A DNA stretch of 64,000 bases, taken from the NCBI GenBank assembly GCA_963731735.1, contig CAVSWO010000002.1, positions 334,106 to 398,105 on the forward strand, in the 5' to 3' direction. A program made the translations under genes and the position numbers. Shown one piece after another: positions 1,248 to 26,090 of the stretch. The stretch is from Candidatus Kerfeldbacteria bacterium (lineage in GTDB: Bacteria > Patescibacteriota > Patescibacteriia > SBBC01 > CAIJZX01). Each line of letters starts with the position of its first letter. Within the stretch, counting starts at the first letter, position 1. Below the pieces are notes generated by a model. That model did not search any database, was not told the DNA's origin, and saw nothing but the letters and a program-made list of their open reading frames with translations.

Positions 1248-2747
<1,500 letters not shown>

Positions 2748-3046: not shown

Positions 3047-3082
3047 TTCAAAAAAACCGCCTTGCAGTCGCAGGGCGGGTTT
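3047..3082 (-). terminator. rho-independent terminator for the 3104..3448 gene (hairpin CCGCCCTGCGACTGCAAGGCGG + T7 on minus strand); also ends the 16S region on plus
   Basis: Stem 3057-3078 with G-U wobble, A7 on plus = U7 on minus. Confidence 0.5.
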
Positions 3083-3103
3083 GAGCTTGACTGACCAGGC
3101 GCC

Positions 3104-3448: not shown

Positions 3449-3640
3449 AGCTACCACCTCCGGTCTGGAATGAGGAACGATTCGACCTTTCCTCAAGTAT
3501 AGCACCAACGCGGCGGCTGCCTAGCCGGGTTGGCAGTACCGGGGAGCGGGTGTATACTGTCTATAGATGTTGAATGTACGCCTAATTTCAACCAACGCCC
3601 GGGCTGACGGGCGGTTTTGTCATTAAATCGAATACGCTCT

Positions 3641-4279: not shown

Positions 4280-4407
4280 CCCTCGTTAAAGGAACCAGTA
4301 AAGCCTTGCTCATCACCCCCGCCGGATGCCGGCGGCCGGTGTTGGGCTTGCCTAATCATTCGCGGTCTGATATTCTACGCACGCTCTGTAAACAACTTTC
4401 GGTTTGT

Positions 4408-4484
4408 GGGCGATTAGCTCAGGTGGTTAGAGCGCGTCACTGATAATGACGAGGTCCGAGGTTCGAATCCTCGATCGCCCACCA
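4408..4484 (+). tRNA. tRNA-Ile (anticodon GAT)
   Basis: Acceptor GGGCGAT/ATCGCCC, anticodon loop CTGATAA, T-loop GGTTCGAATCC, encoded CCA. Confidence 0.9.
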
Positions 4485-8727: not shown

Positions 8728-8730
8728 GGT

Positions 8731-10179
8731 TTAGGCGGTTGGAAGGGTTGGCGGCTGATTTGCGCGCTGACCGATAATTTCTCGAATGGTTTGGAACGAA
8801 ATGGCGCGGGTTACAATCAGTAAGCTCACGTACGTTACGGCGCTGAGCGTCAGGGACAGCCAAATAGTTTGTGCTCGCAGCACCCAGGCCACTAAGCCCA
8901 GGCCAATCGTTGATACTAGTGTGGCGGGCAAACTCCGCCACTGCAATCGAAAATGCATAACCCGTAATATTAATACGTAACCAACAATCGCGGTCAACGC
9001 CTCGGTAATAATGGTTCCGGTGGCGGCGCCGATATATGAAAAACGGGGGATTAAAATGAGATACAACGTAACACCAATCACGGCCACACTCAGATACGTC
9101 CAAACCATCTGTCGTTGTCGGTTAATAATCGTGACGGCATGGCCCGAGAGACTGTTCAGGAAGAGCGCTACCACCGCGATTAATAAGAGACGCAATATCG
9201 GGGCCGCGGGCGCGTAAGCTTGTTGTCCAATCGCCACTAAAATCGGCTCGGCTAATATCCAACCACCCACGACAATCGGGAGCGCCGCCATGACCAGTAA
9301 CTCGAAACCTTTTTGGAAAATACGTTGAAAGTCTTGGTTGTGTTGGTGCGCAAAGGCTGCTCCGAGGGCCGGCAGGAGTAACCCCACGAACATGATCGGA
9401 AAGGTGTTAAGAATTTCCAACACTTTGTAGGCGGCACCGTATAATCCGACATCGTAGCTCGAAGCAAAAATTGAAAGGAAAATCGTATCGATACGGAAGT
9501 AGATTAAATTCAGTACAATTGAAATCGCAACCGGCCAGGTATCGTGCAGAATTGTTTTCCAGTAGAAAAAATTAAAAAGCGGCCGGAAGCGCGTGTAGCC
9601 GCGGGCAGCAAACCACACTATCAACAGGTTTACCAAACTGCCGGCGACCACCGACAACATTACCTGTGCCAGGCTGCCGCCCAGGCTAACCACTGCAATA
9701 ATTCCGCCCAGCAACGCTACTCGGCCGATCAATTCGGCCAAGGCCACCCGACCCATGGCCAGACGAGTTTGAAAAATTCCGACCAGCAACTGCGTGGCCG
9801 CAATCGCTACAAATGACAAACTGCCGATCCAAATTGCCGAACGGACCGCGGCACTATACGGCATCAACAACGCCAGCAGCGCCCCCAGGCCCAGGATGAT
9901 GGCCGCCGACACCCAGCGCAATCCCAATAGATTCCCGACCACGAACCCCGTGTCCGCATTCGGTTTTGTCAGTTCGCGAATCAGCATTAAATACAGCCCC
10001 AGGTCGGCCAAAACCGAAAAAAATCCGAGGTACGCCATCGCCGTGGTATAGGCGCCAAACCCGCTGGGCTCAAGGTAGCGTTGCAGTAATCCAACGGTTA
10101 CCAGGCCAAACGCCGTCCCCGCAACTTTACCAAGAAATTGGATGATCGTATTGCGCCCGACCGCTTGTACAAAACTCAT
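8731..10179 (-). CDS. wzx: Wzx-type oligosaccharide flippase / polysaccharide biosynthesis protein (MOP superfamily)
   Basis: ~14 TM helices, typical N-terminal region. Confidence 0.75.
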   Translation of the reverse strand: MSFVQAVGRNTIIQFLGKVAGTAFGLVTVGLLQRYLEPSGFGAYTTAMAYLGFFSVLADLGLYLMLIRELTKPNADTGFVVGNLLGLRWVSAAIILGLGALLALLMPYSAAVRSAIWIGSLSFVAIAATQLLVGIFQTRLAMGRVALAELIGRVALLGGIIAVVSLGGSLAQVMLSVVAGSLVNLLIVWFAARGYTRFRPLFNFFYWKTILHDTWPVAISIVLNLIYFRIDTIFLSIFASSYDVGLYGAAYKVLEILNTFPIMFVGLLLPALGAAFAHQHNQDFQRIFQKGFELLVMAALPIVVGGWILAEPILVAIGQQAYAPAAPILRLLLIAVVALFLNSLSGHAVTIINRQRQMVWTYLSVAVIGVTLYLILIPRFSYIGAATGTIITEALTAIVGYVLILRVMHFRLQWRSLPATLVSTIGLGLVAWVLRAQTIWLSLTLSAVTYVSLLIVTRAISFQTIREIIGQRANQPPTLPTA

Positions 10180-10216
10180 ACGTGCGTCAGGAAACTATCA
10201 CGCATATATGGGGTCG

Positions 10217-10843
10217 TCAACGTACTGCTTGGCCAGTTGGCGGGTGTTGATGGTGGGGAACCGGTTTTTGATCATCCAGCACGGTTTTTGGATTCAGACT
10301 GGTATCCGGTTCCTGACTGTGTACCGCGTCAACCTCCCGTAAAATCAATTCAGCGATCCGGTCCGGATGCGGCACATCTTCAAACACGAAGCGAGCTTTT
10401 TCACCCGCCGTTTGAATATAGACGTTGCCGTACTTTAAAAATGTTTTTAGGGCGCCACGCACCTCATACGTCACGTCCTGAATTCGATACAAGCGCTGCT
10501 CGGCCACCGTCCGGTTGAAAAGTCCGTACTGTTCAATATCAACCACCCGTTTGTTTGAAACAATAAAAATGTCGAGGGCATAATCAATCCAGTAGCCATA
10601 CAGGAGTAACAGCAGAAATAAACTATATAGACTCAGGCCCATGACCACCAGCACGTAACTCGCGGTCCCGCTTACGAAGGCAAATGCCGTAAACGTAAAC
10701 AGGAGCCAGGTAATGGCGACCGGCAGAATGGTCAGCAGAAAAATTTGCAAAATCCGTTTGAAAAATACAAACCAATGGCGATGGAGCACGACGAGGGCAT
10801 GTTCATCGGGCATCGGACTGGGAAGCACGGCGGGGCGATACAT
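10217..10843 (-). CDS. membrane protein with bacterial PH domain (bPH_2/YdbS-YdbT-like)
   Basis: Two N-terminal TM helices followed by ...YIQTAGEKARFVFEDVPHP. Confidence 0.5.
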   Translation of the reverse strand: MYRPAVLPSPMPDEHALVVLHRHWFVFFKRILQIFLLTILPVAITWLLFTFTAFAFVSGTASYVLVVMGLSLYSLFLLLLLYGYWIDYALDIFIVSNKRVVDIEQYGLFNRTVAEQRLYRIQDVTYEVRGALKTFLKYGNVYIQTAGEKARFVFEDVPHPDRIAELILREVDAVHSQEPDTSLNPKTVLDDQKPVPHHQHPPTGQAVR

Positions 10844-15257: not shown

Positions 15258-15374
15258 AGCCCGTTAGAAATCTACTTAGGTAGTAAGTATCGCTCCTTAA
15301 TGTCCGGCCCGCATTGAAAGGAAATTTCTAACGGGCTATGCGCGCAGAATAGCATAAATCGGCGCCGTTCTCAA
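15258..15374 (-). promoter_or_regulatory. hsp20 promoter (TTGAGA-N17-TATTCT) plus a 14-bp perfect inverted repeat bracketing the whole 5' leader
   Basis: IR arms agcccgttagaaat 15258-15271 / atttctaacgggct 15324-15337; AAGGAG SD sits in the enclosed loop. Confidence 0.4.
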
Positions 15375-15424
15375 GTGATTGGGCAAAAATGTTTGGTAGG
15401 GGCTAGTGGAGGTTATCAGAACTA

Positions 15425-15946
15425 CTATCCTTGCCTCTGTAAGTAAGACGCTCGATCAAGCAGGGTTTTCGTACTCTGAACCCGATCAATAAAAAGTGTG
15501 CCTTCTAAATGATCATATTCGTGCTGAATGATCCGGGCCAACAAACCTTTGGCTTTGATATGAAACCATTCGCCTTTTTGATCTTGTGCCTTTACTTCAA
15601 TTGCACTGGGGCGCTTTACCTTGCCGAATAGATCCGCATGGGCAACGCTCCCACAGCCCTCATACCCATCCGTTTGAATTCTCGATTTACGGATAATGAC
15701 TGGATTAATGAAAACTATCTCTCCTTCTTGGCCTTTTTGAGTTCGAAATCTCGTAGATCGAGGATATGCGATAAAAATACACAAACCAACGCCAATCTGC
15801 GGTGCGGCAATACCAACTAAAGCTTCCCGACGCATGGCTAGGTTTAGTCGATTGAGAAGTCTTTTTGTTATAGCACTTTTTGGATTACGAACCTTTTTCG
15901 CCTTTGAGCGAATTATCCTCTCTCCGATTTGAGATATCTTTTCCAT
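15425..15946 (-). CDS. def: peptide deformylase
   Basis: GIAAPQIG, EGCGS, QHEYDHLEG motifs. Confidence 0.9.
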   Translation of the reverse strand: MEKISQIGERIIRSKAKKVRNPKSAITKRLLNRLNLAMRREALVGIAAPQIGVGLCIFIAYPRSTRFRTQKGQEGEIVFINPVIIRKSRIQTDGYEGCGSVAHADLFGKVKRPSAIEVKAQDQKGEWFHIKAKGLLARIIQHEYDHLEGTLFIDRVQSTKTLLDRASYLQRQG

Positions 15947-15950
15947 CAAA

Positions 15951-16256
15951 TTACCGATCTTTTTTGACTTGTCTTTTAGCAATGGCCCCAGCAAACAATC
16001 TTATTGCCGATCGTTTCTCTTTGCTGTAAATAATTGGCACACCAATCAATTGTTTACATCCTGAACAAACGAGTTTAGCGCCCTCACGAATTTCTCCTTT
16101 AGAGTCAGTGATTCGGTCGGTATACAGTCGTTTCAAAAGACCTGGTCCGTCTTTTTGATAGAAGCAAAGAAATTGATTGCACGATTCGCAATACAATTTT
16201 AGCAAACGGGACTTTCCTCCCCTACTGCGCCTAAATTTGTCAGATTTGAGCTTCAC
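15951..16256 (-). CDS. small zinc-ribbon protein (2x CxxC), hypothetical
   Basis: CESC...CSGC; basic. Confidence 0.45.
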   Translation of the reverse strand: MKLKSDKFRRSRGGKSRLLKLYCESCNQFLCFYQKDGPGLLKRLYTDRITDSKGEIREGAKLVCSGCKQLIGVPIIYSKEKRSAIRLFAGAIAKRQVKKDR

Positions 16257-16687
16257 TTTAATGTATCTACAAATGCTTTGATAGTTGGGGAGAAGTGTTG
16301 GAAAATCATATACAAACTTTCGGCTTCTTTTTGCTCTCCTATGACTGACAAATCTTTTCCGAGACCATATGCGACGCCAGCCTCGATGTGGGCTGATTTT
16401 CCGGCTGGCAGTAACAAAATGACGTGTTTGGAATTCTTCAAGGCCTCCATATCTACGTCAAAAACCCTTTTTACCTCTGGGTCAGTTTGCCAGTTCGGGA
16501 TGTTTTCGAATTGCTCCATAAAGACTTCGGGGTCGTGGTTTGGATCGATCGTTTTCAATTGGTACCCTTTCCCATCACCCTCTAAAAAACTATATACAGT
16601 TTTCCCTTTCTGACGAATCTGCTGGACGAGTTCCTTTACTTGATCCTTATTTCTCCAACGTGAAGCTACAAAATAGTCGTATTCCAT
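16253..16687 (-). CDS. nucleoside 2-deoxyribosyltransferase-like protein
   Basis: HIEAGVAYGLGK motif and overall pattern; from memory. Confidence 0.45.
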   Translation of the reverse strand: MEYDYFVASRWRNKDQVKELVQQIRQKGKTVYSFLEGDGKGYQLKTIDPNHDPEVFMEQFENIPNWQTDPEVKRVFDVDMEALKNSKHVILLLPAGKSAHIEAGVAYGLGKDLSVIGEQKEAESLYMIFQHFSPTIKAFVDTLK

Positions 16688-16761
16688 AAAAAAAGTATAC
16701 CACGGTTCTAACCTAAGGTTGCCCTATCACGATAGGGTCTGTAAACATTGATGAAATCCTT

Positions 16762-16781
16762 TGGCAGCCCCACGGGGAATC
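16762..16781 (+). repeat. 20-bp direct repeat of the tRNA-Glu 3' end (19/20 identical to 24974..24993), attR-like island boundary
   Basis: tggCagccccacggggaatc vs tggTagccccacggggaatc, same orientation. Confidence 0.6.
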
Positions 16782-16782
16782 C

Positions 16783-16944
16783 TCCTCCTTCGCGGCTCGC
16801 GACCGTGCGCGGTTCCCGCTCGCCACTCACCCGGAGCCGGGGTTCCTCATCGAGCGCCACCGGCGCTCGCTTCGGATACCCTTCGATTCGCTGTGTAACT
16901 AATCCGGCGACTCGCCGCCACTGGCGTGACGACAACTCGCCGGA
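16783..16944. other. GC-rich (~65% GC) highly structured ~160-bp element flanked by a 10-bp direct repeat TTGGCAGCCC (16761-16770 and 16945-16954); candidate ncRNA or miniature insertion
   Basis: Multiple perfect hairpins (GAGCGCC-ACC-GGCGCTC; AATCCGGCGA...TCGCCGGATT); composition differs sharply from flanks. Confidence 0.3.
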
Positions 16945-16996
16945 TTGGCAGCCCTAACTATAAATTGTTGGAACCGGGTAGTTGAGGAGCTGTCAG

Positions 16997-17626
16997 CTAT
17001 ACCAGCACCATCCACAAAGTTCCGGCCAGCACGGGTACAGTGACATTATCAAACCCAAGCGGGGTATACCGTTCTGTAAGGGTAAGGATTGGCGGTGCAA
17101 CGATTGCCGCAATCCATGACCCATGCGCAGACGGTACAAGTACGAACCCAATCCCGATGAGTAATGAAACGCTTAAAAAAACTATCGAACCACGTATCCC
17201 TTCCCACCAGGGCCGCTGTGGGAGTATTCGCTTGTTTTTCCCAAATAATGCGGCTAAAGAATCAGAAAAGGTTAACACCAGTATTCCGTACACGAAGGCA
17301 GACATGTGGTTTGGGAGAGTTAAGGCAGCTGTGGCGGCAACACCAATCGGAAAAGCCATTGCACCGTGCGTTTGGCGGACGACTTGATGAATGCCCCCAA
17401 ACCACTGTTTTCGCTTTGTAATCACAAGAACTGCCGTGAAACCACTCGCAATGATGTAAATACCGATGCGATCTACGAGTAACGGCAGAAAAAGAGTGAA
17501 CACTCCGCTGAGAACGTGCGCGAGGCGCCTAGTGCCTTCGGCTTGAAAAATTCGTTTCGAATACAGTAACTGGGAGATACCTAAAATAATTAGATATACA
17601 CCCGCGGACATAGCTAGATTGATCAT
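16997..17626 (-). CDS. CdsA/CarS/polyprenol-kinase-like CTP-transferase family membrane protein
   Basis: TFSDSLAALFGKNKRILPQRPWWEGIRGS resembles the CTP_transf_1 signature (SD..A...GK.....P.KTWEG); ~7 TM helices. Confidence 0.5.
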   Translation of the reverse strand: MINLAMSAGVYLIILGISQLLYSKRIFQAEGTRRLAHVLSGVFTLFLPLLVDRIGIYIIASGFTAVLVITKRKQWFGGIHQVVRQTHGAMAFPIGVAATAALTLPNHMSAFVYGILVLTFSDSLAALFGKNKRILPQRPWWEGIRGSIVFLSVSLLIGIGFVLVPSAHGSWIAAIVAPPILTLTERYTPLGFDNVTVPVLAGTLWMVLV

Positions 17627-18540
17627 AAGAGTTTTGAAAATACCGCAAATGACCGTATCGATTCTACGCCTGGATATGGCATTGCATTAACATTATTTCC
17701 TGTCCGGACAAGCAGGTACTCCACGCTGGTAATGCCATTCTGGAGCGCATCCTGATGAGCTTTACACGCAAGGGCGATGGCAAGATGTTTGCGTTGATAG
17801 TCTGGTAACACAGCCACTGTTTTCATTAATAGAACTTCGTCTCGCTGTGGATCCCGTAATGTATACAGGTATCCGACTATGTGTGTCTCGTGTCGCGCAA
17901 CATATACGCTTGCGCGTGATTGTTTGATCATTGGAAGATACAAATATGCGAACTCATCCCATGATAAATCAACCAGTCCCTTTTCGCCCACAAAAGCCTC
18001 TCGGGAAATTGTATACAGCGCCTGCAATTCATTTGTTAAAACATCTATTGATGCACATTCGATGTCGAACCCATCGTGTTGGATTTGAGGAAGTACCGGT
18101 TCGATGAGTGATAAGAGTGTCGGAATGTCTGTACGACGAAAACTCTCGTACGTACGTAGGTGGTGGTAACCATGCAAGATAAGCGTGTTTGGATACCAGA
18201 ATGGGTTGCTTGGTTCAAGTGACGTCGGGGTCTCGCCGCTTATTTGAAATCGGTGACTGTGCCACATGGTGAAATCAACGGGCCCAACAACTTCCTGGCA
18301 ACCGAAGGATTTGAGCCAGGCTTCTGCGTCACGAAGGGACGATACATCTGCCTCCGGTGATGATGCCGAAAAATGACCAACGAAACCAATTTTGTTTTTG
18401 GACGCAGCAAGCCGCCGATCAATAAATGCAGTGAGATGGAATGACCCATCGCCTGAAGAAAATTCCTTCCACTGCCCAAACTGGTGCCAGGGGTTTTCTT
18501 TGGCAAGCCAGGATTGATACTGCTTTTCATGTGTAGTCAT
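17623..18540 (-). CDS. GNAT-family acetyltransferase-like protein
   Basis: VAVLPDYQRKHLAIALA (motif A-like); start trimmed to ATG 18540. Confidence 0.5.
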   Translation of the reverse strand: MTTHEKQYQSWLAKENPWHQFGQWKEFSSGDGSFHLTAFIDRRLAASKNKIGFVGHFSASSPEADVSSLRDAEAWLKSFGCQEVVGPVDFTMWHSHRFQISGETPTSLEPSNPFWYPNTLILHGYHHLRTYESFRRTDIPTLLSLIEPVLPQIQHDGFDIECASIDVLTNELQALYTISREAFVGEKGLVDLSWDEFAYLYLPMIKQSRASVYVARHETHIVGYLYTLRDPQRDEVLLMKTVAVLPDYQRKHLAIALACKAHQDALQNGITSVEYLLVRTGNNVNAMPYPGVESIRSFAVFSKLL

Positions 18541-18551
18541 AATCGCAAGAG

Positions 18552-20171
18552 TTAACGGAGAATTTTCACAACCCCGGTCGAAGCGTTGACCTCGAGCATT
18601 TGACCGGTTTGCACCTGCTGTGTGATGCCTGGTAACTGTACCACGCACGGGATACCGCATTCGCGTGAAACAATCGAGGCGTGCGAGAGAATACCTCCGT
18701 ATTCGACCGCGACACCGGAGACAAGACCGAACAGGGGTGTCCAACCAGGATCGGTGTGCCGAGCAACCAGAATGTCTCCCTTTTGAACCAATGATGCGTC
18801 AGGAAAATCGAGCACCACCGCACGTCCACGAATGGTACCGGGCGATGCGCCGATTCCTTTCCACGTGCTCGTACCTTGGCCCTTTTTGTGTCGGCTTAGG
18901 TCTTCCACAATTTTACCATCAACCTCAAAAAAACGATCGGGTGCGGGTGTGTATGCATATGCTGCGAATTGATTTTGTCGTTCCTGAATCTTCGTATGGA
19001 GTAGCTCTTTCGACATGGTTCCATCAATAATACGCGGTATTTCTTCAAGGGTACACCAAAAGATATCTTTTGAAGCCTTGAGTTGGTGGTGCCGTTTAAG
19101 ATCTTTGCCGATCGCTAAGAATAGAGTTCGAACTGCTGAAAAAACACGTGCACGAAGGAGGCGAGTTTGTTCACGATATGCAATGTGTCGTTCGATTCGA
19201 CTTTGAGAGTTGTGTTTGGAGGCTTGCTTGTCAGGACCAAAGTCAATTTTCTGAGAACTTATCGGCGAGCTATTTTTACCTGTATAGGCACGGATGAGGT
19301 TAAAGAGTACGCTTGGTTGATCCTGTAGCGGTGGGGTCTCGAGTTTGAGCTCATTGGGGAGTCGCGCCCCGTACGTTTTGAGGTATTGGCCAAATACTTT
19401 TCCTAAGTCTGAAGGTGGATTCGAGCAGAGATAATTCCATAATTCAACATCTCGTTTTTGTACCAGCAATGTATGGGCAGTCTGGTCATCGTGAATCGCC
19501 CCTTGGAGTTGTTGCAGTCCAGAATATTGACGCGGCAACGTTGTTTGCCATGTGAATCCGAGGAGAGAGCCGTCCTGTTTTTCCCCAACATACGTCATAA
19601 GGAGAAAATCATTGTCTGTGGTGATGTGCCACATAGGCAAAAGCGTATCCGCAAACCGATTGAATTCTACCCAGAGCTGTTCCGCTTCGCGTAAAGTGCT
19701 AGCTTTTTCATTCAAATCGCGCAATATTGTTTCAACCCGACGTTGGAATCGCTCAATATCCCTCCGAAAAAAAACGACCCGATAAAGAAGGACGAAAGGG
19801 TAGAAGAAACGGAACCACCAAGGGGCGTGAGTTTCACGGAGCAATGTTTGAACCTGTGGCACGGTCAGCATCCGCTCGAGATTACGGACATTTTTCCGAT
19901 AGCCAGGAAACAAAGACGCAAACCGGTACCAATTCAACATATGATAGTAGAGCCGGCCTGATCGCGCCCCGACGAGATTGGAAAAAACAGTATCGTATTG
20001 CTGGATAGTTCTCCAGGGCAATCCAGATGCATGCGCCATACCGCGGTATACCTCGCGATAGACTCGCATCGCGAATGATGTCGTCAGGGGAGTTGTTACT
20101 CCCGCATAGCTCTCGGAAATATTTGCGTTGTCCCAAAGAATTCGTTCATCCATAAAACCAGAGCACCCCAT
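18552..20171 (-). CDS. PEP-utilizing enzyme family protein (PpsA/rifampin-phosphotransferase-like); C-terminal mobile His domain
   Basis: GGILSHASIVSRECGIPCVV near C-terminus; N-terminal NISESYAGVTTPLTTSF. Confidence 0.65.
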   Translation of the reverse strand: MGCSGFMDERILWDNANISESYAGVTTPLTTSFAMRVYREVYRGMAHASGLPWRTIQQYDTVFSNLVGARSGRLYYHMLNWYRFASLFPGYRKNVRNLERMLTVPQVQTLLRETHAPWWFRFFYPFVLLYRVVFFRRDIERFQRRVETILRDLNEKASTLREAEQLWVEFNRFADTLLPMWHITTDNDFLLMTYVGEKQDGSLLGFTWQTTLPRQYSGLQQLQGAIHDDQTAHTLLVQKRDVELWNYLCSNPPSDLGKVFGQYLKTYGARLPNELKLETPPLQDQPSVLFNLIRAYTGKNSSPISSQKIDFGPDKQASKHNSQSRIERHIAYREQTRLLRARVFSAVRTLFLAIGKDLKRHHQLKASKDIFWCTLEEIPRIIDGTMSKELLHTKIQERQNQFAAYAYTPAPDRFFEVDGKIVEDLSRHKKGQGTSTWKGIGASPGTIRGRAVVLDFPDASLVQKGDILVARHTDPGWTPLFGLVSGVAVEYGGILSHASIVSRECGIPCVVQLPGITQQVQTGQMLEVNASTGVVKILR

Positions 20172-21024
20172 ACATTGAGAAGAAAATAGCGATACAGACG
20201 CCCTGATATACCCGCACAGATTTCTGGGTTAGATTTCGTATGTAGCGACTCGCAGAATAACTATAGGCTGCAAAAAGTATACACCAAAGCAGTGCTGGCA
20301 CCCACTGCTGGAGGATTACGAGACCTAATGTAATCATTGTTACCAGAATAACGCCACCACCGATAACTGCCCACACCGGCCCGAGTTGGGCCGAATAGGT
20401 ATCACGACTTATGTTTTCGTTTGCTGGAATACGTATCTTTCGTATCCATTCTAAAAATACCATGCTGGCATATGCAAACACCAAAAATATGATACTGGGT
20501 GAATGCAATCCCATTGTGCCGAGCGCAATAATCATAATTACCCACAAGCCCAAAAACGATTGGATTGTCATGACTGCATTATAAAGAAAGAAGCGTGATC
20601 GTAGCTGATCCCCCAACAAAAAATCTTGACCGGCAATGGCAGTAAGGAGTAGTACAGCTGCCATGTGTGGGAGAAAACTCAAATTAATAAACGCAACAAT
20701 ACATAGTTCAAGCATCATGAGGACGAACGCAATTATTCGTAGCTCACGTGCCTGAACTAAGCCCCGCGGTAATGGTCGCTGTTTATAGTAGAGACGGTCA
20801 TGGTTTTCATCGCGGATCTCGTCAAACAGACGAATATGGCCGAGATAGAACACCCCGAGAACAACTAATCCAACGCGGGGCAGAATATCGAACCCCAGCA
20901 TCCATTGATCTGCGTTGATGTGATGCAAAGTCTCGGTATACGCTGCGGTGGTCAACAATAAGAAACCTATCGGGAACCGCTCCGATTGAAACCGCCAGAT
21001 CTTCCGGATAAATGAACTATCCAT
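20146..21024 (-). CDS. UbiA-family prenyltransferase
   Basis: DEIRDENHD...RPLPRG (NDxxDxxxD ... RPLxxG) and 8-9 TM helices. Confidence 0.6.
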   Translation of the reverse strand: MDSSFIRKIWRFQSERFPIGFLLLTTAAYTETLHHINADQWMLGFDILPRVGLVVLGVFYLGHIRLFDEIRDENHDRLYYKQRPLPRGLVQARELRIIAFVLMMLELCIVAFINLSFLPHMAAVLLLTAIAGQDFLLGDQLRSRFFLYNAVMTIQSFLGLWVIMIIALGTMGLHSPSIIFLVFAYASMVFLEWIRKIRIPANENISRDTYSAQLGPVWAVIGGGVILVTMITLGLVILQQWVPALLWCILFAAYSYSASRYIRNLTQKSVRVYQGVCIAIFFSMYGVLWFYG

Positions 21025-21027
21025 GAT

Positions 21028-22098
21028 TTATCCTATACGCTCAAGAATAAAGAAGTTGCCATACATAAACCCATTGTCTTGATTCCAGAGCTTTGATGAT
21101 TCGTCCTGTAAAATGCGGAATCCGAACTTCGGAAGATCCACAATTGGTGGGTTAGCCAGATTTATCCAAAAACAGACGCGTCCACCAAGAGATACATGTT
21201 TACCAAGAACTGCAAAAAAATCCCGAAACTGACGATCGGAAAATCCTTCAAAAATGTCAGATAGATGAACTTTAGTGAAGGTCCCAAGAGGTGGAAGTGC
21301 TTGTACAACATCTTGTGTAATGAGTTGCCCATCATGACGAAGCCGCTGCCAAAAGTGCCATGCATCATGACGAAAGTATGGTGGGATGGTCTGTTGATAA
21401 CGACCCGTCAATATATACTCGATTAACCAGTTTGAGTGCACGGGAATTTCAGTTAGCCCACGAAATGCTCGTTGCGCATAAATTGACCCCGACGAATCAT
21501 GCGCGTATTTACGGAAAGCGTAATCACGCCCGAATTGATGTAATAATTGTTTTCCATAAAAAAATTTTAATCCTAATCGCCAACGCCACGTATTCCACAC
21601 TCGGCGATAGAGCGCAGACTGTTCTTCCAGTGATTGAGCTTGGAGAATTTGGTGTATGTTTTTTCGCGAGACCAAAAGCGGTAGAATGTATCTAGAAAAA
21701 AATTGAAAATATCTTTCAAGGCGCCCGGTATGGATAATTCCTTGAGCAATATCTTTCAACCGTGTATTCCAAAATTGTCTATCGTTTGGATCTACGATAG
21801 GTAATACGTGGTGCTGATATACGTTAGCGCGACTGCGTGAGTCATGAATGCCAATAAAAGCAAGAAACTCTTTATATGACAGCGCTTCTGCTGCGGCGGC
21901 GATAAGTTTTACTAGCCGAGTCTGATCGGGATTTCGATCAATGGAAACGAGTTGGTGTGGATGATCAGACAACACAGCGACGGGCGCCCCGCCAGCGGCA
22001 GTCACTGTCAAAACACGATCATCGGGCTGTACTACAAGCGCGCGTCGAAGGATGTCGGTATCCTCCCAGGTTTGTGTATATGGTATGCGATTTTTCAC
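21028..22098 (-). CDS. DUF3419 / BtaA-like (SAM:diacylglycerol 3-amino-3-carboxypropyl transferase-like) protein
   Basis: N-terminal YTQTWEDTDIL motif; from memory. Confidence 0.45.
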   Translation of the reverse strand: MKNRIPYTQTWEDTDILRRALVVQPDDRVLTVTAAGGAPVAVLSDHPHQLVSIDRNPDQTRLVKLIAAAAEALSYKEFLAFIGIHDSRSRANVYQHHVLPIVDPNDRQFWNTRLKDIAQGIIHTGRLERYFQFFSRYILPLLVSRKNIHQILQAQSLEEQSALYRRVWNTWRWRLGLKFFYGKQLLHQFGRDYAFRKYAHDSSGSIYAQRAFRGLTEIPVHSNWLIEYILTGRYQQTIPPYFRHDAWHFWQRLRHDGQLITQDVVQALPPLGTFTKVHLSDIFEGFSDRQFRDFFAVLGKHVSLGGRVCFWINLANPPIVDLPKFGFRILQDESSKLWNQDNGFMYGNFFILERIG

Positions 22099-22111
22099 AA
22101 TATCCGGTGTG

Positions 22112-23254
22112 CTACCCGGCCGGCTGTCGTAAGAGCACCCGGAACAAATTCATGGAGCCATATTCAAATCCTACCCTTGCGCCATGCATCCAAAGATACC
22201 ATAAACGATAGAAGGGCCGACCAAACGCGCGTTCAATCTCTTCCTGATGACTTTCGAGATTATGAATCCACGCATTCATGGTATAGACATAATCCAATGT
22301 ATCATCTCGGAACTCTTCAATCCGGAACCCGGCCTCTGTGGCGGCCGCCATGATTTCATCGCGGCTGGGAAGATAGCCCCCGGGAAATACGTATTTCTGT
22401 GTCCAACGGTCAAGTGGTCGCGGTTGGTATCGGCCGGTCGATTGCACGACTAGGGGTGCCCCGGGTTTTAGGCGTTTACCAACCTTTTGAAAATATTTCT
22501 GGAGATGTTTTCTCCCCACATGCTCAAGTGATTCCAACATCATAATCCCGTCATACTTTTCGTTGGGCATATTGGAGATCATGTCTCGATTCTGTACCGA
22601 GACGTGCTTAGCTAAATCGTGTTTACGAATCTGTTCACGACTATAGGCGACCTGTTCAGAGCTCCGGGTAATACTCAAAATGTTCCAACCATAGTTCTCT
22701 GCTGCAAACAGCGCAAAATTTCCCCAGCCACTTCCGAGGTCTAATATTAACGCATCCTTGGGAAGTGCTAGCCAAGTACTCAGGAACCGGAGTTTATTCT
22801 CCTGAGCCTCAATAAGGGAATCTGTCTGGGTGGCATATTTCCCTCCGGAATATGACATGGAATCCTTACCTAGCAACAACTCAAAGAATGTATTTCCAAT
22901 ATCGTAATGAAATGAAATTTGACGCTGGCGAGACTGTGGTTGGCTGAGAGACGCAAGAAAGGCTTGCATTTTATTCCTCCGTGATGGATGGTTGCCTTTA
23001 AATGTGTGGCGAAGTCGTAAATATGCATCGATATCTCCATCGATGTTTACCGCCCCCTCCATGTATGACTCGCCAAAGCCGAGCGATCCCTGAGTTATTA
23101 TTCGCTGTACTGTTTCTGAATTCTTGATGGATATTGAAAATGCCGTGGGCCCTGCTTGACCAAACCGCATTTCTTTTCCGTCCCAATATTTTATAAGAAA
23201 CCCAGGACCTTCGTAAGTTTGGAAGTAGTCTTCAAGTACCTGACGATTATCCAT
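22112..23254 (-). CDS. cyclopropane-fatty-acyl-phospholipid synthase family SAM-dependent methyltransferase
   Basis: LILDLGSGWGNFALFAAENYG (SAM motif I) and CMAS-type flanking regions. Confidence 0.8.
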   Translation of the reverse strand: MDNRQVLEDYFQTYEGPGFLIKYWDGKEMRFGQAGPTAFSISIKNSETVQRIITQGSLGFGESYMEGAVNIDGDIDAYLRLRHTFKGNHPSRRNKMQAFLASLSQPQSRQRQISFHYDIGNTFFELLLGKDSMSYSGGKYATQTDSLIEAQENKLRFLSTWLALPKDALILDLGSGWGNFALFAAENYGWNILSITRSSEQVAYSREQIRKHDLAKHVSVQNRDMISNMPNEKYDGIMMLESLEHVGRKHLQKYFQKVGKRLKPGAPLVVQSTGRYQPRPLDRWTQKYVFPGGYLPSRDEIMAAATEAGFRIEEFRDDTLDYVYTMNAWIHNLESHQEEIERAFGRPFYRLWYLWMHGARVGFEYGSMNLFRVLLRQPAG

Positions 23255-23973
23255 ATACTAAATCTAGCGGTTTCGATTCCAAAAACATTCTCTCGTCGGA
23301 CACTATGCCGCGAGCGTTTTTTTCTGGATCGAAATACTCCTATGACGGTGAGTAAGAGAATAAACTGAGCGATTGCCATTCCCCAGCCAACCAGATACAT
23401 TAGCGTATCTTGTACATCCATGACACCAACAAGCAATAACACGCCTCCAATAAAAAGCGATACGAGAGCGATTGAGAATGTTTGTGCACTAGTTTTATCG
23501 CTTTCCCGGATATCTTCACTGGTAAGCTGTACTGCGTGGAGCACAACGGCAGCCATCAACACGATATACATGAAGCTTACGATATCGCTGGGTTGAAAGT
23601 AAAAGAGACCATCTGTCGAAAACCCTGGATTTGATGGCAAAGCTAGGCGAACAAACCAAAGTACCACCGCATACACCGCCACGGATGCGGTGAGGAGCTG
23701 TTGGGTATTTCGTTGGAGTTTGCTGACTGCCGCGCGCGTAAAAAAGAGTAGCGCGCCAATGTAAACTGCTGCTCCCGCGCTAATCCAAAAATTCAATGAG
23801 TCTCCTGCGGGTTTTGCGATAACGGCTGCTGACCAAACCCCGAAAGCTATGCCGGTCAAAAACAGCCCCCAGCCCATTGCCTTGGTTGTTACAGTTCGAT
23901 GCAGGCGGGGCAACAACAATCCAGCCAGGATTGTAGAAACCGTACTGAAGATGAAAAAGATGATTATTAACAT
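23191..23973 (-). CDS. polytopic membrane protein, hypothetical
   Basis: ~7 TM helices; 3' end overlaps the annotated start of the CFA-synthase ORF (true start of that gene probably internal). Confidence 0.4.
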   Translation of the reverse strand: MLIIIFFIFSTVSTILAGLLLPRLHRTVTTKAMGWGLFLTGIAFGVWSAAVIAKPAGDSLNFWISAGAAVYIGALLFFTRAAVSKLQRNTQQLLTASVAVYAVVLWFVRLALPSNPGFSTDGLFYFQPSDIVSFMYIVLMAAVVLHAVQLTSEDIRESDKTSAQTFSIALVSLFIGGVLLLVGVMDVQDTLMYLVGWGMAIAQFILLLTVIGVFRSRKKRSRHSVRRENVFGIETARFSIWIIVRYLKTTSKLTKVLGFL

Positions 23974-24117
23974 ACAGTTAAGTATTGAAATAAGTGCTTG
24001 AATTATAGCTCAATTCCCATGTAAAGTAAACGAACTTCTTAAGTGATAGTGCCCAGATTGAGTTCCAAAAGGAAGAGCGTGATTGGAGGCTTCTAATAGG
24101 CTCTCTTCTAATCAGTT

Positions 24118-24882
24118 CTACCTTTTAGGTATCGCGGTAACTGGCCTCGCCTGGAGTATTACAATTTGATTTTCCCTTGTGCATGCCCATTCAATATCCA
24201 GGGATTTCCCATAAATATTCTCAATAGTTATGGCCCTTCGTCCAACCTTATTAAGAATTGGCAACACCGTTTCCAAAATAATGGATGAGAATTCTCCGTG
24301 CGACAAGACCTCACAAACACCAGAGTTTTTATTTATTGAAACGGTTAGGGGTGATACCTGTCCACTAACGATTTTATCGCCTAATCCGGGGCTAACCTCG
24401 ATCACAAGTTTTGACACGTCGTTCGTTCGTGGGTCGACCGTAAAACAAATTCCCGAGTATTTTGCATCGATCATTTCTTGCACGATAACCGCCATCCTCA
24501 TGTTTCCTTGTAGGCCAAGGTGTTTACGATATTCTTTAATTCGATGGCTGAAACGAGATTGTGCACACCTTCGAATAAAAGAAAGGGCGTCTTTCATTTT
24601 TACATTAAGGAAGGAGTCAAACATGCCAGCATAGCTCACGCTTTGGCCATCCTCCGAGACGCCTGAACTTCGAACTGCAAACAAGCTATAGGGCTGTAAT
24701 TTCTTCTTTTCTTTCTCCGTCAATATCGTAGAATCACTGATTATATCAATTGTCTCAACGTCTACAACAAAAGTTTTTGGGATCTTTTGACCACCTTGGG
24801 CTAAACGCTGAAGATTAAAAGCTTTGCCACCAATCTGGGAGACAGTGAACTTTGTTTGAGCGGTGATTTCTTTAAGAATCAA
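24118..24882 (-). CDS. PEP synthase/PPDK N-terminal ATP-grasp (PPDK_N) domain protein, stand-alone
   Basis: GGKAFNLQRL...VRSSGVSEDGQSVSYAGMFDSFLNV. Confidence 0.65.
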   Translation of the reverse strand: MILKEITAQTKFTVSQIGGKAFNLQRLAQGGQKIPKTFVVDVETIDIISDSTILTEKEKKKLQPYSLFAVRSSGVSEDGQSVSYAGMFDSFLNVKMKDALSFIRRCAQSRFSHRIKEYRKHLGLQGNMRMAVIVQEMIDAKYSGICFTVDPRTNDVSKLVIEVSPGLGDKIVSGQVSPLTVSINKNSGVCEVLSHGEFSSIILETVLPILNKVGRRAITIENIYGKSLDIEWACTRENQIVILQARPVTAIPKR

Positions 24883-24973
24883 GGTCTCGAAAGGTTGTAA
24901 GCAAAAATAATTTTATCGTTTCAAGCGGCATCTTTATATAGTTTCATACTACCACAAAACGCCAGCATATTTC

Positions 24974-25048
24974 TGGTAGCCCCACGGGGAATCGAACCCC
25001 GATTACCGGCTTGAAAAGCCGATGTCCTAACCGTTAGACGATGGGGCC
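24974..25048 (-). tRNA. tRNA-Glu (anticodon TTC)
   Basis: GGCCCCATCGTCTAACGGTTAGGACATCGGCTTTTCAAGCCGGTAATCGGGGTTCGATTCCCCGTGGGGCTACCA; G1-U72 wobble. Confidence 0.9.
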
Positions 25049-25284
25049 ACGAATTGCTTCAACTCTTTCCGTAGCCGGCCTGATTTCTTGATTTGTAACT
25101 CTCGTCTTCGAGCTTCCCTTTTTGTAGAGAATTCCTCAACCCTTACTACTCTATATGGGCGATATGCCCTTGTCGAGCGCACGTCTCCACGATTATGCTC
25201 GTGGATGCGCTTGCGGGCATCTTTAGAAGATCCTATATAGAGACGGCCGGTCCGAAGGCTTTGTATAATGTAGACTTGGTGCAT
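25027..25284 (-). CDS. small GIY-YIG nuclease-domain protein
   Basis: VYIIQSLRTGRLYIGSSKDARKRIHEHNRG; last ~7 codons overlap the 5' end of tRNA-Glu. Confidence 0.65.
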   Translation of the reverse strand: MHQVYIIQSLRTGRLYIGSSKDARKRIHEHNRGDVRSTRAYRPYRVVRVEEFSTKREARRRELQIKKSGRLRKELKQFVAPSSNG

Positions 25285-25414
25285 AGCAATACATGCCAAG
25301 CCTGCATCCTGAACCGTTTCCGGCGGAGCCGGATCCGGCCTTTAGGCCGGAAGACGATGGGGTCAGGAGCGGGGAGAATATACGCGAAATATGCTGTGAT
25401 GTCAATCCGATTTG

Positions 25415-25451
25415 CATAAAGAGAAAGCCCCGCCAGTGTACGCGCGGGGCT
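25415..25451 (-). terminator. rho-independent terminator immediately after the TAA (25459) of the extended reading frame
   Basis: 8-bp GC stem AGCCCCGC/GCGGGGCT followed by UUCUCUUU on minus strand. Confidence 0.5.
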
Positions 25452-25458
25452 GTTGTGA

Positions 25459-25977
25459 TTACCGGTAGAGCGTCTTGATCCGGCCCCAGGATTGCTGGGT
25501 AGTCGGCGTGGCGCCAAGGACGTTCAGCGTCGCGAATCCCCAGGTTGCAGGGATGGAATGGTTCTCCGAGTCGCGGAGTAATCCATACGACCAACGAAAT
25601 TCGCAGGTGCCTGGACCGACGCCCACGAAGTGGAAGACGGCCAGCTGGCCGGGACCGGTGCCACGGCAGCCGAGTCATGCGGCATCGACTTTCAGGCTGT
25701 CGCCGGTCGGCGGAAACATCCAGAAGAAATGGTCGCAGAGCGCTTCGCTCAGTAGGGTGCCGGGTTCGGCGTTGCCCGGCTGAACGATCGTCGGATCGTA
25801 GTTGAAAACCAGGCTGTAGGCGAGCAGGTCATTGACCGGCCCGATTTCGAGCGACAGCGTGATCGGATCCCCTATGCCGACCGTCACGACCTCGGGATTG
25901 AAGGACAGTTCAGCTGCCGAAGCCACCGTGGCAGTCAGCAAGCCAGACAGACATAGCATCAAAAACAGTCGTTTCAT
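25459..25977 (-). CDS. secreted Gly-rich protein interrupted by an in-frame TGA at 25675-25677 (ORF-track part = 25675..25977); readthrough, recoding or pseudogene
   Basis: SD AGGAGG + ATG 25977; signal peptide MKRLFLMLCLSGLLTATVASA; 72 further protein-like codons after the TGA ending ...TPTTQQSWGRIKTLYR* at TAA 25459, then terminator. Confidence 0.45.
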
Positions 25978-26090
25978 TATCCCCTCCTGGTTACATGTCA
26001 TGTACGGTTCCGCGTGATGCGGCAAAGAGCTGCCCGAATATAGGTGAAAAGCCTGTTTTTGTCAATACCTATGGTACACTACGTAATCAT

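Follow-up and report, generated by a model that had tools for sequence, protein, structure and literature searches.

An 8.2-kb island at a tRNA-Glu gene holds a reduced, reordered version of a widespread operon with a probable role in membrane-lipid synthesis

What does a block of membrane-associated genes do in a small bacterial genome, and does it work as one unit? The window analysed here, a 64,000-nucleotide stretch from a Candidatus Kerfeldbacteria bacterium, has eight ORFs at 16997-24882, every one on the minus strand. An earlier note on this DNA had read them as a horizontally acquired, lipid-related operon with short or overlapping junctions, naming UbiA-, CdsA/CarS-, BtaA-, CFA-synthase- and GNAT-like products. 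The mapped junctions agree with that layout, and the idea of one lipid-related functional unit is borne out by dozens of unrelated loci that have the same families in the same order. The gene inventory missed two of the eight genes (24118-24882, PPDK_N; 18552-20171, Rph_4th and PEP-utilizers). The eight genes and the features that flank them are listed in the direction of transcription:

24974..25048, minus strand: tRNA-Glu(UUC) (Rfam 64.6 bits; ARAGORN)
24118..24882, minus strand: N-terminal half of a split Rph/PigC-type dikinase, a nucleotide-binding PPDK_N ATP-grasp protein (PF01326 160 bits)
23191..23973, minus strand: 7-TM membrane protein (seven hydrophobic segments)
22112..23254, minus strand: CFA-synthase-like SAM methyltransferase with N-terminal DUF7884 (PF02353 204 bits; PF25371 50.5 bits)
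21028..22098, minus strand: DUF3419/BtaA-like protein, 356 aa (PF11899 177 bits, model positions 8-384 of 385)
20146..21024, minus strand: divergent UbiA-superfamily intramembrane transferase, 292 aa (PF01040 35.0 bits)
18552..20153, minus strand: C-terminal half of the split dikinase, 533 aa (PF00391 77 bits; PF27448 Rph_4th)
17623..18540, minus strand: GNAT N-acyltransferase with an N-terminal extension, 305 aa (PF00583 34.5 bits)
16997..17626, minus strand: 209-aa polytopic membrane protein, a putative remote CTP_transf_1-superfamily member encoded by a conserved core gene
16762..16965, minus strand: GC-rich structured non-coding stretch (MFE -104 kcal/mol, z = -4.2)

The cargo belongs to a genomic island of 8.2 kb whose insertion site is the 3' end of the tRNA-Glu gene. 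That 3' end (24974-24993) forms the right edge and is one copy of an att-like direct repeat, the second copy of which is the left edge (16762-16781; 20 nt, 19/20 identical). A pattern search matched the repeat twice in 64 kb, at these borders only, with 0.00 matches expected by chance. Together with a GC content of 0.464 against 0.533 in the remaining window, this supports the proposed horizontal acquisition. The structured stretch lies directly downstream of the last island gene and ends in the left repeat copy; an Rfam search of it returned no family. The island shares with other tRNA-gene-associated islands the tRNA 3' end repeated at both borders, deviant GC, and patchy cargo, but it differs in that no integrase or other mobility gene was found within or beside it. 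Another low-GC stretch (15300-16761) falls outside the repeat, a further difference from such islands.

Junctions within the cargo are mostly tight. The PPDK_N gene is followed after +144 nt by the 7-TM gene, which overlaps the CFA synthase gene by 64 nt in the window and is separated from it by +48 nt in an independent assembly; the two sequences differ by one base at about 23325, where the independent assembly has one extra G, and the 7-TM protein has 260 aa in the window and 223 aa, ending at 23303, in the other assembly. The remaining junctions are +13 nt (to DUF3419), +3 nt (to UbiA), -8 or -26 nt (to the C-terminal dikinase part, starting at 20153 or at the alternative ORF start 20171), +11 nt (to GNAT, starting at 18540), and -4 nt (to the 209-aa gene). 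Read from 18744, the GNAT ORF would be longer and would overlap the gene before it; the gene call gives 305 aa.

The two overlooked genes encode a single dikinase split in two, with four other genes between the halves. The PPDK_N half (254 aa, TTG start) matches NF004881 with 145 bits, and its residues 15-251 align with residues 14-288 of a full-length 866-aa homologue. The C-terminal half, which comprises the Rph_4th substrate-binding domain and the PEP-utilizers swivelling phosphohistidine domain, matches NF004881 with 332 bits (model positions 322-890) and solved structures of Listeria rifampin phosphotransferase (5hv1-3, 5fbs; E about 5e-28); its residues 2-533 align with residues 298-865 of the same homologue. 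The halves thus tile the homologue end to end, the break falls exactly at a domain boundary, and the phosphohistidine motif GGILSHASIVSRECGIP is retained at residue 486 of the C-terminal half. The C-terminal part is also a separate gene in loci L002 and L003. Rph and the prodiginine ligases PigC and RedH have the same PPDK_N, Rph_4th, and swivelling phosphohistidine architecture. Unlike them, the cluster dikinase belongs to another subfamily, nearest to NF004881 yet under its cut-off, and the island enzyme is divided and lies in a lipid operon beside an intramembrane transferase; we know of no role in lipid metabolism for this dikinase family. In relatives, no gene accompanies the UbiA-like gene more constantly than the dikinase (39/40 metagenome loci), so the chemistry proposed in the earlier note omits a central step.

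The cluster is defined by the UbiA-like gene, part of its conserved core. The assignment of the island protein to UbiA holds but is marginal, since its PF01040 score of 35.0 bits barely exceeds the cut-off of 34.2; NF010118/PRK13592 gives 33 bits, compared with 84-150 bits for relatives. Searched against the PDB, the family profile has one significant solved relative, the DGGGP synthase (DGGGPS) of M. jannaschii (6m31, E 2.8e-8), and DGGGPS-type NCBIfam models are the second-best matches of relatives; for the island protein, the DGGGPS equivalog models score 22.6 against a cut-off of 269. No similarity to MenA, UbiA, or CyoE models was found at E <= 0.01; the protein is not a MenA, UbiA, or heme-O enzyme. 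Hence the grouping with menaquinone or heme-O enzymes, which the earlier note had set against its own reading, is absent by both models and PDB profile, and DGGGPS is nearest instead. DGGGPS is an ether-forming enzyme, and the donors in known UbiA-family reactions are allylic or ribosyl diphosphates. In the cluster family, the canonical second Asp-rich motif DxxDxxxD is replaced by ExxRKxR...E, so the donor or mechanism may differ from classic prenyl-diphosphate ionisation. The island protein keeps every family-invariant residue (R65, D68, E69, D72, D76, P84, P86, R87, G88, E192, R195, K196, E203, Y210, and G215).

The small membrane protein proved harder to place. A Pfam and NCBIfam HMM search of the 209-aa protein gave no match, including to PF01148 and PF01864; the family reaches CTP_transf_1 indirectly only and the CdsA signature is absent, so the CdsA/CarS-like call does not hold. 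Membership in CarS was rejected (no PF01864 match; hhalign probability of 0.7% against a CarS-like neighbour). Loci L006 and L046 encode a separate CarS/CdsA besides the 209-aa homologue, which is therefore not simply that enzyme. We regard the protein as a putative remote CTP_transf_1 relative, polyprenol-kinase- or cytidylyltransferase-like. Its gene does not adjoin the UbiA gene, as had been stated, but lies two genes away; in locus L008 the homologue is fused to the UbiA-like protein in one ORF.

The other family calls of the earlier note are confirmed. The DUF3419 protein covers nearly the full model, is 47% identical to its L002 homologue, and is putatively a SAM-dependent 3-amino-3-carboxypropyl transferase. 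BtaA uses SAM to attach a 3-amino-3-carboxypropyl group to a hydroxyl of a lipid and so makes a phosphorus-free homoserine-ether headgroup. The cluster has this full-length protein in common with the BtaA/BtaB betaine-lipid (DGTS) pathway of bacteria and algae but lacks a conserved BtaB-type N-methyltransferase, and the GNAT in its place would imply N-acylation rather than trimethylation. The GNAT is nearest, and weakly so, to EctA (E 1.2e-3; TIGR02406, E 3.6e-3); EctA acetylates a four-carbon diamino acid. The CFA-synthase-like protein matches solved structures 7qos, 5z9o, and 6bqc over its full length (E 1.8e-50 to 3.7e-39) and NF008686 with 227 bits, under the cut-off of 400. No such gene occurs in any related locus, and it is an island-specific accessory outside the conserved set. 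The 7-TM protein has no Pfam match above cut-off and no homologue in the 89 related loci. That it might represent the C-terminal extension of long 209-aa-family forms was rejected, as the two are unrelated on comparison.

These loci come from a tblastn synteny survey, in which 80 metagenome loci were used for gene order. The order is nearly fixed, on one strand: HMG-CoA reductase (HMGR), UbiA-like transferase, dikinase, DUF3419, 209-aa homologue, GNAT, and acyl-CoA ligase. Counted over metagenome loci with enough flank, a class-I-like HMGR lies upstream in 37/47, and besides the dikinase, DUF3419 is present in 26/27, the 209-aa homologue in 22/23, the GNAT in 17/18, and the ligase in 13/14. 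Many uncultured bacteria from soils and the sea carry the operon; going by the names of the sources, they belong to several phyla (MAGs of Gemmatimonadota, Eisenbacteria, Eremiobacterota, Gammaproteobacteria, and Ignavibacteria), with a locus GC of 0.335-0.70. All five window proteins of these families have their best matches in one locus, L002 (37-51% identity), which, like the fusion in L008, points to functional coupling. The island is a trimmed, rearranged copy of this operon: it retains the five central families, with the ATP-grasp half of the dikinase shifted to the operon head, adds the CFA synthase and the 7-TM protein, and lacks the HMGR and ligase genes, neither of which occurs in the 64-kb window. 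Our literature search found no publication describing the cluster.

Relatives keep further lipid genes in its company: CdsA and CDP-OH_P_transf inside or beside the operon in L046 and L042, CDP-OH_P_transf and a real CarS-like gene with the UbiA-like gene and dikinase in L006, PS decarboxylase in L007-L009, fatty acid desaturase in L007 and L048, and a DAGK-type lipid kinase in L009. The canonical HMGR scores 355-368 bits with Pfam and 318 against an equivalog cut-off of 442, and no other mevalonate-pathway gene lies within 8 kb of it, so that a simple role in isoprenoid supply leaves it unexplained. Four loci without HMGR (L003, L004, L009, and L078) have a FAR-type thioester reductase (NAD_binding_4) instead. 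This replacement suggests that the reductase converts a CoA thioester, perhaps a non-isoprenoid one, into an alcohol.

The archaeal pathway of DGGGP synthase, CarS, CDP-alcohol transferase, and decarboxylase has bacterial homologues (PMC6431249, PMC7852524). The cluster is like it in pairing a UbiA-like protein nearest DGGGPS with a small polytopic CTP_transf_1-superfamily protein, and its relatives add CDP-OH_P_transf, CarS-like, and PS decarboxylase genes. A true DGGGP synthase and a CarS-type CDP-archaeol synthase would then yield a CDP-activated diprenylglyceryl phosphate, to which a headgroup is added. This we consider rather improbable, and the DGGGPS/CarS pairing seen by the earlier note comes down to resemblance: the second Asp-rich motif is lost, the DGGGPS equivalog score is far under cut-off, the 209-aa protein is no CarS or CdsA member and stands beside separate ones in L006 and L046, and neither GGGPS (PcrB) nor G1P dehydrogenase was found in any of the 89 loci. 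The pathway would also leave the ever-present dikinase, DUF3419, and GNAT unexplained. An alkyl-ether aminolipid of non-isoprenoid origin is quite improbable as well. Here, a ligase-activated carboxylic acid would be reduced to an alcohol by the HMGR- or FAR-like enzyme; the dikinase and the 209-aa protein would add phosphate, and the atypical UbiA-like enzyme would transfer the alkyl group, with host-derived alcohols used in the island. The PRK09274-like ligase ("fatty acid CoA ligase family", 326-358 bits), the NAD_binding_4 reductases, the HMGR score under the equivalog cut-off, and the basic residues in the second UbiA-like motif, which fit a non-classical donor, all point this way. Yet the Pfam scores of the HMGR are in the range of ordinary HMG-CoA reductases, the ligase could equally supply the GNAT, and we know of no precedent for saturated alkyl transfer by a UbiA-family enzyme.

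Because PigC-type dikinase relatives carry out condensation reactions during pigment biosynthesis, the product could also be a small molecule that is not a lipid. A secondary-metabolite cluster for a diffusible prenylated small molecule, such as a signal or antibiotic, would require the dikinase to activate a carbonyl for condensation, as in PigC and RedH, and aminocarboxypropyl transfer and N-acylation to build a homoserine-derived moiety. The patchy distribution, the transfer on an island, and the resemblance of the ligase to OleC-type beta-lactone synthetases (179-212 bits) are in keeping with this, and PigC and RedH models match both dikinase halves (140 and 116-131 bits), albeit far under their cut-offs of 1300-1350. 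We judge it unlikely, given that the core includes two or three integral membrane enzymes, that bulk phospholipid genes were recruited repeatedly (CdsA, CDP-OH transferase, PS decarboxylase, desaturase, and CFA synthase), and that the cluster is not accompanied by any conserved PKS, NRPS, exporter, or regulator. Polyprenol salvage, with the 209-aa protein and the dikinase restoring the phosphate on scavenged molecules and the UbiA-like enzyme supplying menaquinone, ubiquinone, or cell-wall carrier synthesis, would suit a small host genome (822,872-bp contig). Phytol salvage in plants and cyanobacteria comprises VTE5 phytol kinase, VTE6 phytyl-phosphate kinase, and VTE2 homogentisate phytyltransferase, and follows the same logic: a CTP-dependent prenol kinase of the CTP_transf_1 superfamily, another enzyme that phosphorylates, and a transferase of the UbiA family. 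In the cluster, however, a PEP-synthase-type dikinase takes the place of the DUF92 protein, a DGGGPS-like transferase that of the aromatic prenyltransferase, and the kinase role of the 209-aa protein is putative. Salvage is very improbable: MenA, UbiA, and CyoE similarity is lacking, the equally conserved DUF3419 and GNAT have no role in it, and free-living soil lineages, whose contigs are large, commonly carry the operon. Decay of the island into a non-functional remnant is scarcely credible. Two canonical genes are gone, the dikinase is broken, no integrase is present, and the 7-TM gene has a frameshift-type difference; against this, eight ORFs are intact, the UbiA-like invariant residues and the phosphohistidine motif are kept, junctions are tight, and the dikinase break respects a domain boundary, with an equal split in L002 and L003.

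We favour, by a little over even odds, the explanation that the island cargo is an operon copy that builds a specialised membrane lipid; that it forms a single unit for lipid biosynthesis, homologous to the conserved operon, is very probable. The following four-step chemistry is tentative and in its details rather doubtful. A hydrophobic alcohol (a prenol being the likeliest) would be phospho-activated by the soluble dikinase via the Rph reaction (ATP + ROH -> RO-P + AMP + Pi) and by the CTP-dependent kinase- or cytidylyltransferase-like 209-aa protein, which together would give a diphosphate-type donor. The DGGGPS-like UbiA enzyme would join the chain to the hydroxyl of an acceptor through an ether bond, and the BtaA-like enzyme would place the SAM 3-amino-3-carboxypropyl group on a free hydroxyl to give a phosphorus-free homoserine-ether headgroup. 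Since DUF3419 always occurs with the UbiA-like protein and the dikinase, ordinary diacylglycerol is an unlikely lipid acceptor. Finally, the GNAT would N-acylate or N-acetylate the headgroup amino group. The lost second Asp-rich motif, the lone HMGR, the lack of GGGPS/PcrB in the loci, the two canonical genes absent from the island, and the assembly-dependent frameshift in the 7-TM gene count against this scheme. The likeness of the UbiA-like protein to DGGGPS, of the dikinase to rifampin phosphotransferases, of the 209-aa protein to CTP_transf_1 and, weakly, of the GNAT to EctA speaks for it, as does the full-length DUF3419 match. In the island alone, the CFA synthase would also methylenate double bonds of the chains. 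The reductase and ligase of the canonical operon would form a supply module, which a host-dependent organism with a small genome may dispense with.

The cargo of the island at 16997-24882 is one transferable functional unit of lipid-type enzymes, homologous to a widespread conserved operon. The island encodes eight ORFs, every one of them on the minus strand, and a tRNA gene lies at its upstream border.

Genes of the island and the adjacent tRNA gene (coordinates, strand, product)
24974-25048, minus strand: tRNA-Glu(UUC), whose 3' end abuts the first island gene
24882..24118, minus strand: PPDK_N ATP-grasp protein of 254 aa (PF01326, 160 bits)
23973..23191, minus strand: 7-TM protein without a family (nothing above cut-off)
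23254..22112, minus strand: CFA-synthase-like methyltransferase, CMAS (PF02353, 204 bits, plus DUF7884)
22098..21028, minus strand: DUF3419/BtaA-like protein (PF11899, 177 bits, full-length)
21024..20146, minus strand: UbiA-family protein (PF01040, 35.0 bits vs a cut-off of 34.2)
20153..18552, minus strand: protein with Rph_4th and PEP-utilizers swivelling domain (PF00391, 77 bits)
18540..17623, minus strand: GNAT (PF00583, 34.5 bits)
17626..16997, minus strand: 209-aa membrane protein (no match in Pfam or NCBIfam)

From the CMAS gene onward, the junctions measure +13, +3, -8, +11, and -4 nt, and such short spacing indicates a tight operon over that stretch. An earlier note had described a horizontally acquired set of UbiA, CdsA/CarS-like, BtaA-like, CFA-synthase-like, and GNAT genes, and most of these calls hold up in domain searches. 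The UbiA call passes the PF01040 gathering cut-off marginally, the BtaA-like protein covers positions 8-384 of the 385 in PF11899, and the GNAT call is borne out by PF00583, with EctA as nearest relative (a weak match). The CFA-synthase-like call is backed by the PF02353 catalytic domain, an N-terminal DUF7884 (50.5 bits), and full-length alignment with the solved CFA synthases 7qos, 5z9o, and 6bqc (E 1.8e-50 to 3.7e-39), and the score against the NCBIfam equivalog NF008686 (227 bits) is below its cut-off of 400. CMAS and the 7-TM protein are restricted to the island and absent from the related loci compared. The locus was also assembled independently (Logan ERR11594398_2089356), with 99.95% identity over 12.1 kb apart from a one-base indel at ~23325, which makes the 7-TM protein 260 aa long in the window, where its gene and that for CMAS share 64 nt, and 223 aa in the Logan assembly; an error in either assembly is possible.

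The region has a GC content of 0.464, against 0.533 for the remaining window. The terminal 20 nt of the tRNA-Glu 3' end are repeated, with 19 of 20 positions identical, at 16762-16781, just beyond the last island gene; the pattern has no further copy in the 64 kb, and 0.00 copies are expected by chance. This flanking repeat and the deviant GC content are together characteristic of a genomic island targeted to a tRNA gene, here 8.2 kb long. The ORFs of 15300-25300 include neither an integrase nor any further mobility gene. That the recipient has a reduced genome, as the earlier note presumed, is reasonable given a source contig of 822,872 bp.

Several features lie around these borders. The last island gene is separated from the att-like repeat by a GC-rich non-coding stretch (16762-16965, minus strand), which contains a hairpin of ~24 bp and folds with -104 kcal/mol (z = -4.2 vs shuffles); candidate roles are those of a strong terminator, a repeat element, or a small RNA. 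At a relaxed threshold, Rfam recognises no RNA family in this spacer or in 25040-26010, and promoter and terminator scans gave results no better than shuffled sequence. Directly outside the direct repeat is a second low-GC stretch (15300-16761, GC 0.425), possibly an insertion of greater age or one adjacent to the island, with three ORFs.

ORFs in the low-GC stretch 15300-16761
15425-15994: peptide deformylase gene
15951-16256: zinc-ribbon-like ORF of 101 aa
16253-16687: ORF of 144 aa without any family

On the other side, an ORF for a 90-aa GIY-YIG nuclease (25027-25299) overlaps the tRNA-Glu 5' end by 22 nt; beyond it come ~700 nt rich in GC, in which the sole ORF (151 aa, 25223-25990) lacks support and Rfam has no match. 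Farther away, the region 1249-4484 comprises a 16S rRNA gene (1249-2746), a 220-aa ORF, and tRNA-Ile; the 64 kb contain no 23S rRNA gene, which suggests that the rRNA genes are not linked.

Contexts of the first-pass homologues, although few, already grouped the DUF3419, UbiA-like, dikinase, GNAT, and 209-aa genes. A genome scan recovered the same gene set in three loci, from Gammaproteobacteria, Proteobacteria, and Ignavibacteria MAGs, and a metagenome scan with the UbiA-like sub-alignment gave 80 loci of 253 confirmed relatives. Synteny by tblastn revealed one strand and one order: HMG-CoA reductase (HMGR), UbiA-like protein, full-length dikinase, DUF3419, 209-aa homologue, GNAT, and AMP-binding acyl-CoA ligase. 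Counted only over loci with enough flank, the dikinase accompanies the UbiA-like gene in 39/40 loci, DUF3419 in 26/27, the 209-aa homologue in 22/23, GNAT in 17/18, the acyl-CoA ligase in 13/14, and HMG-CoA reductase in 37/47. The GC content of the operon loci ranges from 33.5% to 70%, and source-attached names of family members include Longimicrobiaceae, Gemmatimonadales, Eisenbacteria, and Eremiobacterota. The five window proteins common to the operon each have their best match in the same related locus, L002 (37-51% identity). Homologues of the operon reductase and ligase are absent from the window's 64 kb. The operon HMGR is class-I-like (318 vs an equivalog cut-off of 442), and the ligase best resembles PRK09274, OleC-like models ranking second.

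Two genes of the island encode the halves of one Rph/PigC-type dikinase, a relationship that the earlier gene list had missed. The PPDK_N protein (24118-24882) aligns to residues 14-288, and the C-terminal part (18552-20153) to residues 298-865, of a full-length homologue of 866 aa; the halves thus tile the homologue, with the break exactly at a domain boundary. All of the PPDK_N, Rph_4th, and PEP-utilizers domains are present across the two genes, with the phosphohistidine motif GGILSHASIVSR. Among solved structures, those of Listeria rifampin phosphotransferases are the closest. NF004881 is the best curated model (332 + 145 bits vs a cut-off of 883), followed by the PigC, RedH, and Rph models. 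Every score is far below its cut-off, and we therefore reject membership in a characterised equivalog (Rph, PigC, RedH, or PEP synthase). To our knowledge, dikinases of the PEP-synthase/Rph type are an enzyme class not known from lipid metabolism.

The UbiA-like protein (292 aa) at first seemed rare, with 12 matches in a k-mer-limited homology search, but this was an artefact of divergence: a profile search returned at least 2084 proteins (E <= 1e-10). PF01040 is also found in its relatives. The first Asp-rich motif (NDxxDxxxD type) and the RPxxxG segment after it are kept (R65-x-x-D68-E69-x-x-D72-x-x-x-D76 ... R83-P84-L-P86-R87-G88) and invariant in 124 family members, aligning to NVINDIFDIEIDR...RPLPSG of 6m31 (M. 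jannaschii DGGGP synthase, DGGGPS). At the second motif (DxxxD), the KDFEDMEGD of 6m31 is replaced by E192-x-x-R195-K196-x-R...E203: two Asp are lost, the basic residues are invariant, and E192, R195, K196, and E203 are invariant across the 124 sequences and all kept in the window protein. With the family profile, 6m31 is the sole significant structure in the PDB (E 2.8e-8, near full length), and chlorophyll synthase comes next (E 0.023). The NCBIfam matches of the window protein at E <= 0.01 are only PRK13592, PRK05951, PRK12884, and BchG; the family's neighbour is the uncharacterised model PRK13592 (relatives at 84-150 bits), with DGGGPS-type models second. A grouping with menaquinone or heme-O enzymes, which the earlier note had named as the outcome that would overturn its reading, did not emerge: no MenA, UbiA, or CyoE model matched in the NCBIfam search, and with the PDB profile result this led us to reject a MenA, UbiA, or heme-O synthase identity.

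For the 209-aa protein, the previous CdsA/CarS-like assignment may hold, at the remote superfamily level only. Direct HMM searches gave no Pfam or NCBIfam match, including PF01148 and PF01864, and the protein lacks the CdsA signature SxxKRxxxxKD...HGGxxDRxD. Its own conserved motifs are AExTRKxxHxxxG, DxxAAxxG, and ExxSxxGxDNxxxP, which may resemble those of the dolichol/phytol-kinase branch. An exhaustive profile search recovered 4618 cluster representatives of its family. Thirteen of the 47 top family members have weak PF01148 matches (best E 1.8e-7), and hhalign of the family against the CdsA domains of fused members gave E 2.4e-4, with the DxxAxxxG...K(T/S)xEG region aligned. A CarS-like identity was rejected, as PF01864 did not match and hhalign against the CarS-like protein of locus L006 gave a probability of 0.7%. 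Neither a profile search of PDB sequences nor a Foldseek comparison of an AF2 model with the PDB (below E = 1) yielded a match; the model was built from a 47-sequence alignment, as the one from 3 sequences reached only pLDDT 44.6 and could not be used. In L008, from a Proteobacteria MAG, the 209-aa and UbiA-like proteins are fused in frame in a 563-aa ORF (9062-10753), a fusion that independently supports joint action of the two.

Other architectures occur in this family. In P0038, P0067, and P0109, the family member is fused C-terminally to a full, genuine CdsA domain; in P0105, P0119, P0139, and L053:12648-13997, an uncharacterised membrane extension of ~230 aa follows at the C-terminus. The island's 7-TM protein was considered as a detached version of the extension in these ~450-aa forms and shows no similarity to it. 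A 198-aa gene occupying the position of the 209-aa gene in L003 is unrelated and ferritin/AurF-like.

From the sequences, we infer that the product of the operon and the island is a specialised membrane lipid. Phosphorylation of a hydrophobic alcohol would fall to the dikinase, whose nearest characterised relative is known for this chemistry, and the 209-aa protein might provide a second, CTP-dependent activation. The DGGGPS-like UbiA enzyme would then form an ether bond, and the BtaA-like enzyme, a putative SAM:lipid 3-amino-3-carboxypropyl transferase, would add a SAM-derived homoserine-ether headgroup. This headgroup would be N-acylated by the GNAT, with acyl-CoA from the ligase in the canonical operon, and the CFA synthase of the island may add an extra tailoring step. 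Taken together, the operon and the cut-down island would represent a new lipid pathway in which the dikinase (pyro)phospho-activates a hydrophobic alcohol, a UbiA enzyme without the second Asp-rich motif makes an ether from that donor, and the product is a phosphorus-free N-acyl homoserine-ether lipid. We regard this full scheme as possible but doubtful; its weak points are the atypical second UbiA motif and the lone HMGR, apparently exchangeable with a thioester reductase.

Other explanations were weighed against this scheme. A true archaeal-type phospholipid pathway would agree with the structural match to 6m31; however, the curated equivalogs PRK12884 and PRK12882 reject a DGGGP synthase identity (22.6 bits for the window protein and 26-30 bits for relatives, vs 269), and neither GGGPS/PcrB nor G1P dehydrogenase is among the conserved neighbours in the 89 related loci. 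A non-isoprenoid alkyl-ether route was considered alongside the reductases: four loci (L003, L004, L009 at 7706-8830, and L078 at 7017-8033) have a FAR-type NAD_binding_4 thioester reductase instead of HMGR, which points to a possible functional exchange of the two reductases within the pathway. Polyprenol salvage is a further alternative.

A secreted secondary metabolite was also considered, and PigC and RedH are among the models nearest to the dikinase. Lipid genes, in turn, are repeatedly inserted in or next to the operon across relatives: PS decarboxylase in L007-L009, fatty-acid desaturase in L007 and L048, a DAGK-type lipid kinase in L009, and CDP-OH_P_transf, a CarS-like gene, and Acyl_transf_3 in L006. 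In L046 (11503-12731), a genuine CdsA (PF01148, 118 bits) and a CDP-alcohol phosphatidyltransferase separate the dikinase gene from that for DUF3419, and the same pair is just upstream of the operon in L042 (5310-6900). L003 has a radical SAM enzyme and a diiron protein. The island might finally be a decaying remnant, with the split dikinase as a pseudogene. We reject pseudogenisation, since the halves tile the full-length homologue and the phosphohistidine motif GGILSHASIVSRECGIP is intact; the C-terminal part is likewise a separate gene in the closest relatives, L002 and L003, and the split is thus a lineage feature and not decay.

In published full texts, we found no description of this gene combination. 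The lipocone paper (PMC12419801), followed as a lead, describes different UbiA and HMGR neighbourhoods. Bacterial DGGGPS homologues and mixed membranes are already known (PMC6431249, PMC7852524), but an operon with an obligatory dikinase, a BtaA-like enzyme, and a GNAT falls outside that picture.

As the operon is compact and self-contained, the question is directly testable by heterologous expression. If the proposed pathway is true, the seven-gene operon would be a frequent, uncharacterised lipid-biosynthetic module of uncultured bacteria, and the phosphorus-free N-acyl homoserine-ether lipid proposed above would constitute a new class of lipids, common among uncultured bacteria of soil and sea; identification of the product could explain orphan environmental lipids. 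The large Rph/PigC-like dikinase branch would gain its first metabolic role beyond antibiotic inactivation and pigment condensation, and a branch of the UbiA family would be defined by altered metal- or phosphate-binding chemistry. Such a lipid pathway would moreover be transferable to host-dependent bacteria with small genomes, and the acquired lipid-tailoring island would bear on how reduced, probably host-dependent bacteria that are unable to build membranes from scratch remodel their membranes.
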